Part shown: piece by piece, positions 9,869 to 15,045 of the stretch
How positions within the stretch are numbered: the stretch's first letter is position 1
Layout of the letters: each line of letters opens with the position of its first letter
Notes under the pieces: model-generated
Databases searched by the model: none
Told to the model about the DNA's origin: nothing
The model's input: only the letters and a program-made list of their open reading frames with translations
NCBI GenBank assembly: GCA_963666115.2
Contig: CAXXET010000006.1
Location: forward strand, 64,001 to 128,000
Direction: 5' to 3'
DNA from: Dehalococcoidia bacterium
GTDB lineage: Bacteria > Chloroflexota > Dehalococcoidia > UBA6926
DNA: 64,000 nucleotides
Program-made: the position numbers and the translations under genes

Positions 9869-10564
9869 ATGAGATACGTGCCTGTAACCCCCGCCGATGA
9901 TCCGCAGGATGACTACCTGCCGGAGGGAGTCCTTGCGCTCCCGGATGAGCGCCCCGTCCGCCGCTTCCTCCTGGACATGGCCGAAACGCTCGGCCTCGCC
10001 GTCATCCTCTTCCTCATCGTCCAGTCGCTCGCCCAGAACTACGTCGTCACCGGCGGCAGCATGGAGCCGTCCATCAACGACAATGAACTCATCATCGTCA
10101 ACAAGGCCGTCTATTTCAGCCTCGATAGGGACAGCGTGGACAACCTCGTGCCGTTCGTCGATCTCCCGGACGGCGATGACGTCTACCTCTTCCACCCCCC
10201 GCAGCGAGGCGAGGTCATCGTCCTGGACTCCCCGGAAAACGACGACCTCGACCTGATCAAGCGCATCATCGGAATCCCGGGCGACACGATCGAGTTCGAC
10301 GGTCACGGCGGCGCCATACGTGTCAACGGCGTGGAGATCGACGAAACGTGGCTCTTCGATGACCAGCGGACGAGAGGGCAGGACGTCACCCTGCGTGAAG
10401 ACGAGTACTTCGTCATGGGCGACAACCGCAGCTCCAGCCAGGACTCCCGCCAATGGGGAACCATAGGACGCGAGGACATCGTCGGCAAGGCCCTCCTAAC
10501 ATACTGGCCCCCCGAAAGAATCGCCCCATCCCCCCATCACCCCCAAGCCTACCCCCAAGCTTGA
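9869..10564 (+). CDS. lepB: Signal peptidase I
   Basis: GGSMEPS, LIKRIIGIPGD, YFVMGDNRSSSQDSR; TATAAT at 9851. Confidence 0.95.
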   Translation: MRYVPVTPADDPQDDYLPEGVLALPDERPVRRFLLDMAETLGLAVILFLIVQSLAQNYVVTGGSMEPSINDNELIIVNKAVYFSLDRDSVDNLVPFVDLPDGDDVYLFHPPQRGEVIVLDSPENDDLDLIKRIIGIPGDTIEFDGHGGAIRVNGVEIDETWLFDDQRTRGQDVTLREDEYFVMGDNRSSSQDSRQWGTIGREDIVGKALLTYWPPERIAPSPHHPQAYPQA

Positions 10565-10615
10565 CCCCTCCCGACCACCCTGACCCCTCCCGACCACCCT
10601 GAGCGCGTCGAAGGG
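10562..10615 (+). repeat. 19-bp tandem duplication running into a family C repeat (CACCCTGAGC..GTCGAAGGG)
   Basis: tgacccctcccgaccaccc x2, then tgagcgcgtcgaaggg. Confidence 0.8.
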
Positions 10616-10637
10616 CCACCCCGTATCATGGACACCA

Positions 10638-10713
10638 GGGCCGTTAGCTCAATCGGCAGAGCAGGGGACTTTTAATCCCAAGGTTCCGGGTTCGACCCCC
10701 GGGCGGCCCACCA
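10638..10713 (+). tRNA. tRNA-Lys (anticodon UUU)
   Basis: GGGCCGT acceptor stem pairing with GCGGCCC, TAGCTCAATCGGCAGAGC D arm, CT-TTT-AA anticodon loop, GGTTCGACCC T arm, ends in ACCA. Confidence 0.96.
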
Positions 10714-10782
10714 CAGGCGTAGCTAACCTAGCCGCATAGCTGAACCGTCGCTGGGAGGCAAACCTCAGCAAGAGATTGGGGC

Positions 10783-13503
10783 TTAGTCACCGCTCAATTC
10801 GTCGTCACTGTCATCTTGGCTCATGGGGGCGATTCTCCTGGCGCGTGATGGATCGGTCACACGGAACCCAGTGCGAGCGCCAACAATTACCTCGGCGCTC
10901 GCCTGAAGTTTGCGAAGCTTTGAGCCATCGTCAGGCTCGTTGGCGAAGAGGGTAGGGTTCACTGCAAGTAATTCTTGCGCCCGATCGGCGGGTATGGGAT
11001 TGACATCAACGCGAATGTCGCGGCCGCCATCGATATGCGCCCGCAGAAACTGCCCCCAGCCTGCCAGATCCACGACGTATATGCACTGCCCATTATAGGC
11101 TGGAGTGCTGAGGACTGGGTGTCCTCGGTAACGTCCCAACCCTCCGGTTCGCTGAGATTCCAGCAGCCCCCGATCCGGTTGAAATTCCGCCAAGTGCCCC
11201 ATGTTCAGCCAACTTTGAAGGTCAGACCAGTTGCCTGCCAGGACTACCACAACCTGCTGTGGATAGCCAAGTGCCTCCAGTGCTTGATCGATTCCTCCCA
11301 CCAACGCGAGGGGAGTCTGGAGACGAAGCTCTACTTTGGGTGCGCCCTCCAGCAACTCGCAGAATCTCATCTCAGCATCATCCGATATAGACTCACCCCA
11401 CTGGCCTCCATCCAGCGGCAAAAAACTAGAATGGGAATCCGCAGGGGAATCTGTTAGGAATCCCTTGTGCACCACCCGGGAGAGGATTCGTTCTTCAGGG
11501 GCATCGGCGTCATCTCCCGAAACGTGCAAGGATGCACCAGCTTGTTCGAACAGTCGCTCGATTGAGTTGCTGGAAGATGCGGCAGAATACACATCTGCCG
11601 TGAAGGCTGCTATCCTTGTCTCGCTAAGATCTCTTGCAATGATTTCGTAATCCTCTGTTATCTCATCTCTGCGGACAGCAAAGCGCAGGGACTCTGTGGC
11701 CAACTCGCGACGCCTCACCGCTGTTGGCTCAGCTTCCGTTTGCATAAAGGGTTCGACAGATTCGGCGTTGCTCAGAAACCAATCCAACGCCCGCTGCGCT
11801 CTGCTATTCAGGTCAATGGTTGAATCAACATCGGAAGATAGCTCCATGAGACGTAGAGTGAAGAACAGCAATGGATAGCGTTCAGCTGAGACATGGATGG
11901 GTTGGTGTGACAGCGCCCCCTCTGTCTCCCACTCTTCCCACAAGGGAAATCTGGCGGAGTTGCTGTGCATGAATGCTAGGGCAAAGTCGTCCGAAAGGAG
12001 TCGAAGATTTCCGTAAGCTAACCGTCCCACGTTCAAGTATTCGTTTGCATCTTCCAGCTTGTTTTCCTGAGCTAGCGCGAGGGCGCGTCCTCCAAGCCCC
12101 ATCAGAGCTATGCGGTATTCTTGCTGCACCTGCTGATAAAATCCAGGACTGTTGGGATCTAGCCAGTTGTCCTCCTCCCAATCGAATCGCATCGTGCTAA
12201 GCAGGGCCTGAAAGGTTTGGTGCAAACGGTCGTAATCGCTCGGCTGATTACTCTCCATCGCATTGGACAACAATCTCGCCTGCTGCCTGACTAACTCCCT
12301 CGCGTACGGGAATTTGTCCTCTAGATTAGCGTCAAAGGTGAAGGCCAGTGCATTAAGGGAAAAGCGGTCCCGAATCTGCTCCCGGAGGTCCGTGCCACCA
12401 ATGCGGTTCACGATCTGGTAGTTCCATCTGTATCCATCTAGGCCAACAGTGAACAATTCACCACATCTTTCTCGCACTCCGTCTCTAGTAAGCGTATAAT
12501 CGAAGCGCAGAAGCTCTTGTATGTACTCCCGGTCACCTTGGCGAATGACGTCTTCGCGGAACGAGTAGAGGTTGGCGCCTAGTTCTCTCAGTGGCGGCCA
12601 GTGTGGCTGAGCCCCCGGTGCGCTCCACCGAATACCAGCCGCCTTAATCTCGTCCATGGCAAAGCTAATCAATTCCCTGATGGAGTTGAGCGATCGCCGT
12701 AATTCTTCATGCCGACGCTCGGACATGGCTCTACGCGCATCATCCAGCAGGGCCCGTATTGCATCGTCGGCTGACCCTTCGCCCTGGTCAGGAAGCAATA
12801 CCGAGAGATCGGATTCATTGGACTCGCGGGCTATGGAAGCGCGATGTGCCCGACCCACAAAGGCCTTGACTGCTTCGCGCACATCGGTTTCGTTGACGCG
12901 TCGCCTCACGGCCATCCAATGCGCCGGCCTGGAGTAGGAAACCGCTCTCTCAAAGAGAACGCCCGCCAGAACCAGGTTCATGAGGAAGGCAAAACCTGCG
13001 AACGGAACAAAATAGCTCAGCCTCGGCTGCATGCCTTGGGGAACCGCATCTCCACTGGTGTAGGCTTCACTCAGCAGCAGTGCTCCGGTTACAGTCACGG
13101 CCAAGAGACTTCCTATGAAGAGGTCCCGCATCCGTGTACTCCGGACATACTCTCGGTACACACGATCATCGACTTCGCTCCGACCCCGTAGGCCCTGCAT
13201 CATGAACAGCGTGACGGCTAGTGTCAGCGCCGCAATCGCTGATTGAGCGGTGAGCAAAGTTCCGAGAATCGTTCCAACGTCACGGGGTATCGGCGAGAAG
13301 GGCAATGGCGGTGCCACGTGCGCCCAAATGACGATACCAACAGCCACCAGGCTTGCCAAGGCAAGCCACGAGAAGACGACTCGCCATATGCGTTGGAGGA
13401 ATCCCCACGTTGCTGTCGCCCATGACAATGGAACCCCGATACCCCTGCGGCTCAGGAGATCCTGAATCTTGGCGCGAATGCGCTCACATCGTGAAGTAGA
13501 CAA
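10783..13503 (-). CDS. 906-aa hypothetical membrane protein: about 4 N-terminal TM helices, helical middle, possible HK97-fold C-terminal domain
   Basis: Long ORF with foreign, lower-GC codon usage directly after the tRNA; hydrophobic segments within residues 40-185; domain call is by eye. Confidence 0.8.
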   Translation of the reverse strand: MSTSRCERIRAKIQDLLSRRGIGVPLSWATATWGFLQRIWRVVFSWLALASLVAVGIVIWAHVAPPLPFSPIPRDVGTILGTLLTAQSAIAALTLAVTLFMMQGLRGRSEVDDRVYREYVRSTRMRDLFIGSLLAVTVTGALLLSEAYTSGDAVPQGMQPRLSYFVPFAGFAFLMNLVLAGVLFERAVSYSRPAHWMAVRRRVNETDVREAVKAFVGRAHRASIARESNESDLSVLLPDQGEGSADDAIRALLDDARRAMSERRHEELRRSLNSIRELISFAMDEIKAAGIRWSAPGAQPHWPPLRELGANLYSFREDVIRQGDREYIQELLRFDYTLTRDGVRERCGELFTVGLDGYRWNYQIVNRIGGTDLREQIRDRFSLNALAFTFDANLEDKFPYARELVRQQARLLSNAMESNQPSDYDRLHQTFQALLSTMRFDWEEDNWLDPNSPGFYQQVQQEYRIALMGLGGRALALAQENKLEDANEYLNVGRLAYGNLRLLSDDFALAFMHSNSARFPLWEEWETEGALSHQPIHVSAERYPLLFFTLRLMELSSDVDSTIDLNSRAQRALDWFLSNAESVEPFMQTEAEPTAVRRRELATESLRFAVRRDEITEDYEIIARDLSETRIAAFTADVYSAASSSNSIERLFEQAGASLHVSGDDADAPEERILSRVVHKGFLTDSPADSHSSFLPLDGGQWGESISDDAEMRFCELLEGAPKVELRLQTPLALVGGIDQALEALGYPQQVVVVLAGNWSDLQSWLNMGHLAEFQPDRGLLESQRTGGLGRYRGHPVLSTPAYNGQCIYVVDLAGWGQFLRAHIDGGRDIRVDVNPIPADRAQELLAVNPTLFANEPDDGSKLRKLQASAEVIVGARTGFRVTDPSRARRIAPMSQDDSDDELSGD

Positions 13504-13720
13504 GTCACGAGAATCGTACCATCAACGAAATCGGATGGTAACCCTCCGGTCGCACAGGATACCGTCCCCTACAGCGTTTGTAGCGCCATCCCCAGTTCGC
13601 TCTGCCAAACTCCAGCCGAGGGGAGATGTCCTCCTAGCGCGCAGCGTAAGACCGTCGATGCACTACACTGGGCACGTGAGGACGAAAGCCACAATGACGT
13701 GAGCATAGGGAAGGCAACCG

Positions 13721-13952
13721 ATGAGATCATTCGACAGGATTACCATCGATCCCAACGTAATGGGCGGCAAGGCGTGTGTTAGAGGAATGCGCGTCACCGT
13801 CGGCACGGTGGTCGGCCTGCTCGCGGCCGGGCGCTCACCAGCGGAAATACTCCAAGCCTTACCCCTACCTTGAGCGAGAGGACATCGACCAGTCACTGGC
13901 GTACGCCGCGTGGCGGCTGGAAGAGCGTGAAGTCCCCCTCCCAACATCATGA
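13721..13952 (+). pseudogene. DUF433-family antitoxin with a +1 frameshift; partner toxin absent
   Basis: MRSFDRITIDPNVMGGKACVRGMRVTV...EILQA, extra T near 13859, then YPYLEREDIDQSLAYAAWR. Confidence 0.8.
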
Positions 13953-13982
13953 GACCGACGCTCCTGATGAACTAGAACCAAA

Positions 13983-14016
13983 CCGGGGGAAAGAAGCAAA
14001 AGCCCCTTCCCCCCGG
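13983..14016. terminator. Hairpin downstream of the ABC transporter operon
   Basis: ccgggggaa...ttcccccccgg-type inverted repeat. Confidence 0.45.
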
Positions 14017-14046
14017 CCTCATTGACGTAGTCCGCTAGCGAGTCAC

Positions 14047-15045
14047 CTACGGAATCCAGGCCCGCCAAACAGACTCGTTCGCATCCACCCACTCCTGCGC
14101 CGCCGCGCGCACCGTCAGGTCGTTCTCGGTGTAGTTCAGCACAATCTCGTTCTGCTGCGCGTTCGTCATCTGGAAGTTGGAGAGGAACTTGTACGCCTCA
14201 GGGAACTCCTCCTCCAGGCCCGGCCACGTCAGCTTGGCGACGATATCCGTCGGATAGCCGCAGTCATACCTCGGCCCGTCCGGATAGCAGTCGCCCGTCC
14301 ACGGCGGCATCTCGATCTGAACCAGGTCGTACTTCGCGTGCGCCCAGTGGGGTTCCCACAGGTACGTCATCACCGGGTCGCCTCGATGGAACGACGCATC
14401 AACCTCGGCAAGCGCCGCGCCCTCAGACCCCGCGAAGACCACCTCGAAGTCGATGCCCCATGCCTCAAGGCGCTCCTCCGGCCGCGTGTCCCACGCCGGC
14501 GTGAACTCAAGCAGCCTGCCCTTCGCGCCCGTCGCGCTCGTCGCAAACACGTCCTTGTACTGGTTCATGTCATCGATGGTGCGAAGGTTGGGGGCCACGG
14601 CCTCGATGCCGCGCTCAGGGTCGCCGTTGATCACGTAGGACGGCACATACCAGCCGCCCGTGCCGATAATGCCCGCCTCGCCCAGGATGTCCACCGTGGG
14701 GTCATCACCGTGCACGTAATCCGCAAGGAGTTCGGCGCTGTATGACGGCCAGTTGCAGCACACGAAGTGGAAGTCGCCGTTCTCCAGCCCCTGGAAGAGG
14801 GGCGCTGAATCGGCGGGCGCAAACTTCGTCGCCACCGTATGGCCCATCTCCTGCTCCAACAGGATCCGCGCCACCGCTGTCACGACAAGCTGGCCGTTCC
14901 AATCCTGGTCGACGAGATAGAGCGTCCCCATCTCCTCCGACCCCGCGTCATCGTCGGCCTGCTCACATGCCAGGCCCGCCGCCAGCGCGACCGCCAACAG
15001 CAGCGCCAGCGAGATACCGATCCACATCTTGCCCAGTTTCCTCAT
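14047..15045 (-). CDS. proX: Glycine betaine/proline-type ABC transporter substrate-binding lipoprotein
   Basis: Lipobox GLAC; GWYVPSYVI; YLWEPHW; operon context. Confidence 0.85.
   Translation of the reverse strand: MRKLGKMWIGISLALLLAVALAAGLACEQADDDAGSEEMGTLYLVDQDWNGQLVVTAVARILLEQEMGHTVATKFAPADSAPLFQGLENGDFHFVCCNWPSYSAELLADYVHGDDPTVDILGEAGIIGTGGWYVPSYVINGDPERGIEAVAPNLRTIDDMNQYKDVFATSATGAKGRLLEFTPAWDTRPEERLEAWGIDFEVVFAGSEGAALAEVDASFHRGDPVMTYLWEPHWAHAKYDLVQIEMPPWTGDCYPDGPRYDCGYPTDIVAKLTWPGLEEEFPEAYKFLSNFQMTNAQQNEIVLNYTENDLTVRAAAQEWVDANESVWRAWIP

Follow-up and report, generated by a model that had tools for sequence, protein, structure and literature searches.

A gene of a Dehalococcoidia bacterium (Chloroflexota) encodes a 906-amino-acid (aa) membrane protein whose C-terminal ~270 residues carry the HK97 capsid fold, an assignment strongly supported by structure prediction. 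The gene is on the minus strand at 10783-13503 of a 64,000-nucleotide (nt) stretch of contig CAXXET010000006.1 (assembly GCA_963666115.2), here called the window; it begins with a TTG start codon and its stop codon is at 10783-10785. The capsid-fold domain, termed module B, comprises residues 621-895 (10819-11643, minus strand) and is preceded by a membrane and helical part, termed module A. Comparisons between related sequences indicate that module B is a mobile module with swappable N-terminal partners, and it may serve in the sensing of phages.

The capsid fold and the membrane module

Residues 590-906, modelled alone with AlphaFold2 (AF2) from 72 sequences, gave a model with a predicted local distance difference test (pLDDT) score of 94.5 and a predicted template modelling score of 0.87. 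A Foldseek search of the Protein Data Bank (PDB) with this domain model yielded 223 matches at E≤1e-3. The titles listed are all those of phage capsids or encapsulins, bar one engineered nanocage that is unclassifiable by title. With the model of the full-length protein, capsids and encapsulins were likewise on top (26 matches at E≤1e-3), and the matches consist of capsid-type proteins and one designed repeat protein only. VIA-align 2, which is independent of Foldseek, was run against 48,161 representative solved chains. Its entire top 50 are HK97-fold proteins, and 65 of the chains reach Z≥8 with the module B model. The best match is the encapsulin chain 9i8e_C, on which positions 36-303 of the predicted model (residues 625-892 of the protein) superpose with a Z of 15.0 and a root mean square deviation (rmsd) of 3.5 over 214 residues; such superposition on solved capsid and encapsulin chains places the domain within the HK97 fold. 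Other Z-scores are 14.9 for PfV (2e0z_A), 14.2 for T4 gp24, 13.9 for the T. maritima encapsulin, 12.2 for the HK97 prohead (3qpr_A) and 10.3 for a gene transfer agent (GTA). In the viral library BFVD, the domain model has 170 matches at E≤1e-3 (best E 4.7e-9), and every named match is a capsid protein.

An earlier reading of this DNA, made from the letters alone (the sequence-only reading), had called the fold by eye from four motifs. AF2, Foldseek, VIA-align and BFVD agree that the call was right, and the motifs fall where they had been placed, on the strand before a long helix, on the helix itself and on later strands. The motif SRVVHKGFLTDS (residues 673-684, 11452-11487) lies on a model strand at 672-679. 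GQWGE...CELL (residues 699-717, 11353-11409) coincides with a model helix at 699-718, the long 'spine' helix. GRYRGHPVL...IYVVD (residues 790-812, 11068-11136) corresponds to model strands at 790-812, and ARTGFRV...RARRI (residues 876-891, 10831-10878) to strands at 869-893. A hairpin at residues 658-679 occupies the expected position of the E-loop, as read from the DSSP string of the model.

The likeness to capsids escapes sequence methods, among them Pfam, a profile search of PDB sequences, the families PF05065 and PF04454, and hhalign. A profile of 72 homologues found no match among PDB sequences. The 906-aa protein matches neither the phage capsid family PF05065 nor the encapsulin family PF04454 (Linocin_M18); the latter has no match in the whole genome either and does have matches in three control genomes. 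Pfam at E≤1 returned nothing for the protein except a chance SMP_2 match (E 0.059), and searches of PADLOC, NCBIfam and PDB sequences with it gave nothing useful. A three-copy self-association prediction of module B, run without controls, gave a score of 0.00 and a mark of 0.42 and speaks neither for nor against assembly.

A separate 301-aa open reading frame (ORF) of the same genome does match Phage_capsid PF05065, at 38.2 bits, above the cut-off. It is the only PF05065 match genome-wide (contig 8, G000:C8:145676-146500; L078 1438-2343, plus strand), and hhalign gives a probability of 0.6% for a comparison with module B, i.e., no relation.

The remainder of the protein begins with a basic N-terminal tail (residues 1-40, 13384-13503), which is poorly conserved (column identity 0.27) and has a low pLDDT. 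Four predicted transmembrane (TM) helices with conserved polar residues follow (residues 41-186, 12946-13383), as delimited by hydropathy, AF2 helices and invariant columns. Next is an all-helical, putatively cytoplasmic domain (residues 187-620, 11644-12945), defined by the AF2 model and by conservation, which is the most conserved part of the protein. An acidic, disordered tail (residues 896-906, 10786-10818; pLDDT <50 at residues 897-906) follows module B. All of these segments are read from the minus strand. The TM part and the helical domain together constitute module A, which also exists as stand-alone genes of ~560-650 aa.

About four N-terminal TM helices and a long helical middle had been anticipated, and both are present. 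Kyte-Doolittle hydropathy gives four hydrophobic segments within residues 41-185 (about 41-61, 79-102, 127-147 and 163-185), and the full-length AF2 model (mean pLDDT 82) is all-helical up to residue 654 and mixed alpha/beta at 658-893. Lysine and arginine are abundant in the N-terminus, the loop 104-126 and the region following TM4 (seven in each). This suggests, from hydropathy alone, an N-in/C-in topology with the large part of the protein past residue ~186 in the cytoplasm.

Conservation extends over the entire length of a 40-sequence alignment (A1), which has 53 invariant columns, with a dense block at residues 290-380. Polar residues of the TM part, Q87, Q103 and R114, are invariant, and conserved residues of the helical domain include W293, W302-P303-P304 and C347-G348. 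The gene call on record (P0002) is 782 aa long and omits the first ~124 residues, and with them two of the four TM helices. Alignments of homologues begin from residue ~4-7 of the 906-aa ORF. As residues 45-124 are conserved among homologues, the 782-aa call is probably too short and the longer ORF is the better model.

Compared with the ESM Atlas, module A (residues 1-620) finds hypothetical clusters only, plus a weak lead to DUF2254 (Pfam PF10011). The latter is a cluster of language-model look-alikes, 24% of whose members have DUF2254 (score 0.94); module A has no Pfam match to this family, and the lead was rejected.

Partners of the capsid-fold module

Modules A and B are also found apart. 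A-only proteins of ~560-650 aa, detected with the family profile, cover residues ~20-610 (loci L024-L028), and B-only proteins of ~290-330 aa cover residues ~600-895 (L030, L036, L037 and several database proteins with a methionine there). The ends of the former and the starts of the latter coincide at residues ~600-620 of the fused protein.

In relatives, module B is accompanied by other domains. At L030, a 215-aa RelA_SpoT gene is situated 5′ of the B gene with a 4-nt overlap, and at L036 a 237-aa PIN_12 gene has the same arrangement and the same 4-nt overlap. Fusions are found as well: a single 482-aa protein consists of TIR_2 (5.6e-13) and then B (L054), and a single 630-aa protein of RelA_SpoT (4.8e-14) and then B (L056). 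In its N-terminal part, the L056 protein shares 35% identity with the RelA gene of L030. A further partner is module X (~320 aa), which is fused to B at L034 (7043-8017, minus strand) and L035 (6414-7358, plus strand), and at L053 (3001-4185, plus strand) is a separate gene just 5′ of a degenerate B, 56% identical to that of L034. Module X, whether fused to B or 5′ of it, is a conserved Chloroflexota protein or domain, with no match to PDB sequences and no named match in the Atlas. To the eye, its E...ExK-type motif (PEVIVGNG...AIEVK) is reminiscent of PD-(D/E)xK nucleases. In all arrangements module B is invariably C-terminal to its partner or downstream of it.

A hidden Markov model (HMM) of five intermediate B sequences, run against the 6,758 ORFs of all loci, matched B-bearing ORFs exclusively, with E-values of 2.4e-19 for the TIR-B protein, 3.8e-12 for the RelA-B protein and 4.7e-10 for the window gene. 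Module B is rare. Of the 401 genomes of the class, 12 have it, as do 7 of 401 of a phylum-wide sample and 2 of 66 in another class. Alignment A6, at 'near' lengths, detected six stand-alone proteins in a collection of 5.8 billion proteins.

An accessory gene family and its genomic sites

The protein has 338 homologues at E≤1e-3 in a large protein collection. Among the 120 listed, the window's own 782-aa entry aside, most are 650-980 aa long and 42-67% identical. None of these 120 has a precomputed Pfam domain, and the one that is named is a 'hypothetical protein' of a Chloroflexi metagenome-assembled genome (MAG). HMMER, run exhaustively on 1.84 billion representatives, gave 273 clusters at 50% identity. 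All 22 loci retrieved from reference genomes belong to Dehalococcoidia, SAR202 or Chloroflexota MAGs; the family is restricted to Chloroflexota and is without annotation. It is also patchy: at E≤1e-10 the family profile has a match in 15 of the 401 genomes of this class, and in the genus it has one in 1 of 21 other genomes, with a copy that is a broken 281-aa fragment containing a stop. The genome itself has a single copy. Viral contigs scanned with the 40-sequence family alignment contain no relative, which bears neither for nor against a role in phage sensing, and metagenome contigs scanned with alignment A5 contain none either. Frames are intact in 21 loci. Two full-length paralogues, 73% identical to each other, are present in one MAG (contigs L015 and L021); in this pair the capsid-fold part is the most diverged (0.66, vs 0.73-0.78 elsewhere).

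The G + C content of the 906-aa gene is 0.52-0.59, compared with mostly 0.64-0.66 (range 0.60-0.70) in the flanks, determined in 500-nt segments. The foreign composition that had been noticed from the letters is thus borne out, and it is not peculiar to the window, as in 20 of 21 related loci the gene is likewise poorer in G + C than the DNA around it, by a mean of 5.6 points.

The sequence-only reading had described a lone gene beside a tRNA-Lys gene, and the ORF is indeed intact and so placed. The tRNA-Lys (anticodon UUU; 10638-10713, plus strand) is the sole tRNA that ARAGORN finds in the window; it converges with the stop of the ORF at a distance of 70 nt and forms one border of a variable insertion site. 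An insert of ~3.3 kb (10714-14046) sets the window apart from two genomes of the genus, as determined by blastn of window segments on genus loci and by the drop in G + C. All 22 genomes of the genus match the SIMPL and tRNA-Lys pair, and the site 3′ of tRNA-Lys was inspected in 12 of these. In two genomes, tRNA-Lys and OpuAC are separated by ~140 bp, an empty site, and in three by other inserts of 1.6-3.6 kb; in six, OpuAC is not within 16 kb, and in one the contig end is reached. Other genomes (L059-L077) have cargo there such as a two-component system, methyltransferases and an M16 peptidase, as well as a GmrSD-type enzyme, a DNA methylase and an 1184-aa protein with helix-turn-helix and AAA parts. 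No relative of the 906-aa gene is found at this site in the other genomes inspected. As the site is empty or otherwise filled in these genomes, it is variable, and 10714-14046 is one of its fillings. The 906-aa gene is accessory and horizontally acquired. Adjacency to a tRNA does not extend to the family, as none of 22 related loci has an adjacent tRNA, and within 10500-14200 the tRNA end has no att-like direct repeat.

The same insert contains a small, frameshifted ORF that resembles DUF433 (13721-13950, plus strand, divergent from the gene), identified by reading its translation and by a weak match of its first half to PDB 2ga1_A 'DUF433' (E 0.055). It begins MRSFDRITIDPNVMGGKACVRG, and its second half runs on in the +1 frame (...YPYLEREDIDQSLAYAAW...), which points to a frameshift or to mis-sequencing. 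DUF433 proteins are antitoxin-like partners of PIN-type toxins, and the ORF is probably a remnant of an antitoxin-type gene. A strong hairpin directly past the OpuAC gene (13980-14019, minus strand), found by a terminator scan, is likely the operon terminator and the far border of the insert; this hairpin aside, the promoter and terminator scan gave a count not above that of shuffled sequences. In the spacer between SIMPL and tRNA-Lys, just 5′ of the tRNA, a motif of ~22 nt (gacccctcccgaccaccctga) is present twice in tandem (10560-10610).

By Pfam, the ten ORFs adjacent to the gene include riboflavin genes, a dCTP deaminase, SIMPL and a glycine-betaine ATP-binding cassette transporter; three have no match. 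None of the ten is a terminase, portal, protease or encapsulin cargo gene, an absence that had been remarked upon before. Across the 22 loci and the window, no neighbour family is conserved beyond near-identical pairs. A neighbour survey (A3) covered 110 of 113 ORFs; it excluded three ORFs of L007 that a motif filter had mis-assigned, as well as L015, whose target the filter had missed, and L022 (a partial gene).

Known defence genes are found near several relatives. In a Dehalococcoidia MAG, a complete Azaca system lies directly 5′ of the family member (L016 3173-9408, plus strand; ZacA 4e-117, ZacB 1.4e-160, ZacC 2.6e-302). At L008 (3712-8910, plus strand), a 1733-aa DpdF/UvrD-type helicase is encoded ~1 kb 5′ of the family member, with one ORF between. 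Further PADLOC matches near relatives are methylases (L002 and L006) and PDC-S73 (L017). As a raw count, at least 5 of 20 loci (L016, L008, L002, L006 and L017) have a PADLOC-matching ORF within three ORFs. A cyclase of the type found in cyclic-oligonucleotide-based antiphage signalling systems (CBASS), PDC-S11, nSTAND3 and an integrase are also among the neighbour matches, not mapped to individual loci.

Two side observations concern these loci. The giant helicase of L008 has a DpdF/PsyrT-like region at residues ~290-700 and a GajB/UvrD-like region at residues ~1215-1475. At L002, a transfer-messenger RNA (tmRNA) gene (13793-14145, minus strand) is situated 1.6 kb downstream of the family member, with a DNA methylase upstream; this tmRNA context may be another integration hotspot.

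A putative phage sensor and the alternatives

Family 1 encapsulins (D. quercicolus 9i8e, B. linens 7bcv, T. maritima 7k5w/3dkt and P. furiosus PfV 2e0z) share their fold with the module B model at a Z of 13.9-15.0 over 207-214 residues (rmsd 3.3-3.6) and, at ~265 aa, are near it in size. Unlike them, module B has no PF04454 match, no cargo gene and ~620 membrane and helical residues ahead of it. HK97-family phage capsids (HK97 gp5, T4 gp24 and capsids solved by cryo-electron microscopy) and the capsids of GTAs and phage-inducible chromosomal islands share the HK97 fold at a Z of 9-14. In contrast to phage capsid genes, the window gene has no PF05065 match, no head-gene neighbours and no relative on viral contigs. 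In predicted fold, module B is nearest to the Family 1 encapsulins. Its sequence, operon context and architecture place it outside the encapsulin and phage capsid families tested.

A junction of the HK97 fold with TM helices is described for the Family 3 encapsulins of Mesorhizobium, which have four to five predicted C-terminal TM helices resembling the major facilitator superfamily and are encoded in biosynthetic clusters (Andreas & Giessen, 2021; PMC8346489). The window protein shares this junction and differs in that its TM helices are N-terminal, a 430-aa helical domain is located before module B and the gene is alone. An architecture of the kind seen here was not found in the passages of that paper.

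With respect to function, CapRel is the precedent. Its N-terminal toxSAS is kept in check by the C-terminal domain until the latter binds an HK97-fold capsid protein, and there are relatives in which the two parts are not fused (PMC9712102). CapRel(SJ46) and the fused toxSAS genes thus have an N-terminal effector and a C-terminal regulator in fused and bicistronic forms, as does the B family, in which the L056 protein even contains RelA/SpoT. Unlike in CapRel, the C-terminal domain of the window protein is itself capsid-folded and a membrane module replaces the toxSAS; by Pfam, the 906-aa protein has no RelA_SpoT domain, which is present in the relatives L056 (fused) and L030 (adjacent). With a CapRel-type autoinhibitory antitoxin, module B agrees only in its position, C-terminal or downstream.

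HK97-fold capsid proteins are also reported as triggers of Avs7/8/10 and of staphylococcal Thoeris ThsB1/B2 (PMC13581612, PMC11312562). The concept of a phage head protein as trigger is the same as that proposed here for module B, and the sensors there are of TPR or TIR fold and not capsid-folded. Ccm, a satellite capsid homologue, joins the capsid assembly of the helper (PMC8569155); unlike module B, it is a free satellite capsid protein with no effector attached.

TIR, RelA/SpoT and PIN are classic abortive-infection effectors. As module B is common to TIR, toxSAS-type RelA/SpoT and PIN partners, and as the layout is CapRel-like, it is read here as the regulatory or sensing part. It is hypothesized, with a probability of about 0.5, that module B is an autoinhibitory phage sensor and membrane module A the effector of a single-gene abortive-infection system. 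At rest, module B would keep module A inactive. On infection, it would contact a component of phage head assembly, the candidate ligands being the major capsid protein, a scaffold or capsomers; being capsid-folded, it may bind intermediates of head assembly through contacts like those between capsid proteins. This contact would free or cluster the membrane module, and module A, presumed to be toxic, would then permeabilise or depolarise the membrane and abort the infection. A more elaborate form is put forward tentatively as a possibility: module B could be a domesticated capsid-fold immune receptor that recognises phages by contacts of like with like; as a rogue subunit, it would slot into or cap nascent capsomers or procapsids, and would both poison head assembly and cluster its effectors (the membrane module, TIR, toxSAS or PIN), switching them on. 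The sequence-only reading had itself proposed a candidate anti-phage system of one gene, in which a capsid-like part is coupled to a membrane effector. The patchy spread, the insertion at a hotspot and the joining of module B to TIR, RelA/SpoT and PIN support this indirectly; no known defence model matches. Its further ideas, of a module incompetent for assembly and of the poisoning of capsids, gain no such support.

Several observations weigh against the proposed sensor. The fold is known from predicted models only. The 906-aa protein matches none of the PADLOC-DB 2.0 families at E≤1, 13 of 20 larger neighbours scanned singly are without a PADLOC match, and metabolic genes are the neighbours at many loci, the window among them. 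Partners other than module A are few: TIR in one genome, RelA/SpoT in two, PIN in one and X in three. TIR-B is a singleton whose B region finds itself only in the search of 5.8 billion proteins, a search that uses a word index and may miss distant members. Direct hhalign comparisons of the family with TIR-B and RelA-B are weak (probabilities of 1% and 5.6%), though collinear; given the matches of the intermediate HMM, the link between these B domains and that of the window is transitive. At L024 and L025, module A occurs by itself, and the ~5 kb retrieved on each side contain no B, so that module A need not be a B-dependent toxin. Column identity is 0.63-0.68 in module A and 0.635 in module B. 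Module A is thus conserved as well or better, unlike what is expected of a fast-evolving sensor on a generic effector.

A plain toxin-antitoxin or addiction module accounts for part of the same evidence. Here, the capsid-derived module B would be merely an autoinhibitory or antitoxin part, and the gene would stabilise mobile DNA or answer stress without sensing phages. The toxin-type partners upstream, the 4-nt overlaps and the occurrence of fused and split forms fit this as they fit phage sensing, and the DUF433-like remnant in the same insert and the position of the gene in a variable site are in its favour. However, a complete 270-aa capsid fold at a Z of 15 exceeds the needs of an antitoxin, and some relatives adjoin complete defence systems. 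The border between such modules and abortive-infection systems is in any case blurred, as CapRel illustrates, and an addiction function pure and simple is considered unlikely. Somewhat less likely still is a non-immune, encapsulin-like assembly tethered to the membrane, where module B would assemble, on the cytoplasmic side of the membrane, into capsomer-like rings or part of a shell and the helical and TM parts would act in transport, scaffolding or stress. Encapsulins are the closest solved folds, N-terminal encapsulin fusions and Family 3 encapsulins with four to five C-terminal TM helices are on record (PMC8346489), and the strong conservation of module A suggests a function of its own. 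The family is, however, patchy, low in G + C and free of a constant context, with no conserved cargo or operon partner among the ten window neighbours and the 22 loci, and partners such as TIR, RelA/SpoT and PIN are hard to reconcile with a housekeeping compartment. Furthermore, in a closed HK97-type shell, N-terminal TM helices would face the interior, which counts against a tethered assembly.

Another possibility is that module B forms a shell or capsomer which hides a toxic N-terminal domain until phage assembly factors or proteases open it. The partners are N-terminal, as is internalised fusion cargo in encapsulins (PMC8346489), and they are toxic-type enzymes. The commonest form, A-B, does not fit caging, because four TM helices cannot sit in a protein shell without lipid, and the proposal is regarded as improbable. 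A decayed prophage remnant, in which a capsid gene was fused by accident to a membrane gene and has no function, would agree with the foreign composition and with a gene beside a tRNA. It is effectively excluded by the conservation of the family, which has 338 homologues of full-length type at 40-67% identity, conserved over the whole length, and, in the HMMER scan, 273 clusters at 50% identity. In 21 loci the frames are intact, phage genes are absent among the neighbours scanned and relatives are absent from viral contigs.

To our knowledge, every HK97-fold protein described forms a closed shell, i.e., the capsids of tailed phages and herpesviruses, GTAs, satellite capsids and encapsulins. 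No description of an HK97-fold domain combined with TIR, RelA/SpoT, PIN or membrane effectors was found in open-access full texts and bioRxiv, supplements excluded. What is new here is a capsid-fold module that is mobile, is C-terminal in a membrane protein and in relatives accompanies TIR, RelA/SpoT and PIN. If module B is a sensor of phage heads, it would be the first example of the HK97 fold in use outside shells, and a second evolutionary fate of capsid genes besides compartments. It would also represent a new sensing principle of bacterial immunity, whereby the receptor is homologous to its target. The sensor idea is directly testable with few constructs. Fold-level, sequence-blind screens of unannotated accessory genes in uncultured phyla, such as the one that carries this family, can reveal new immune modules.

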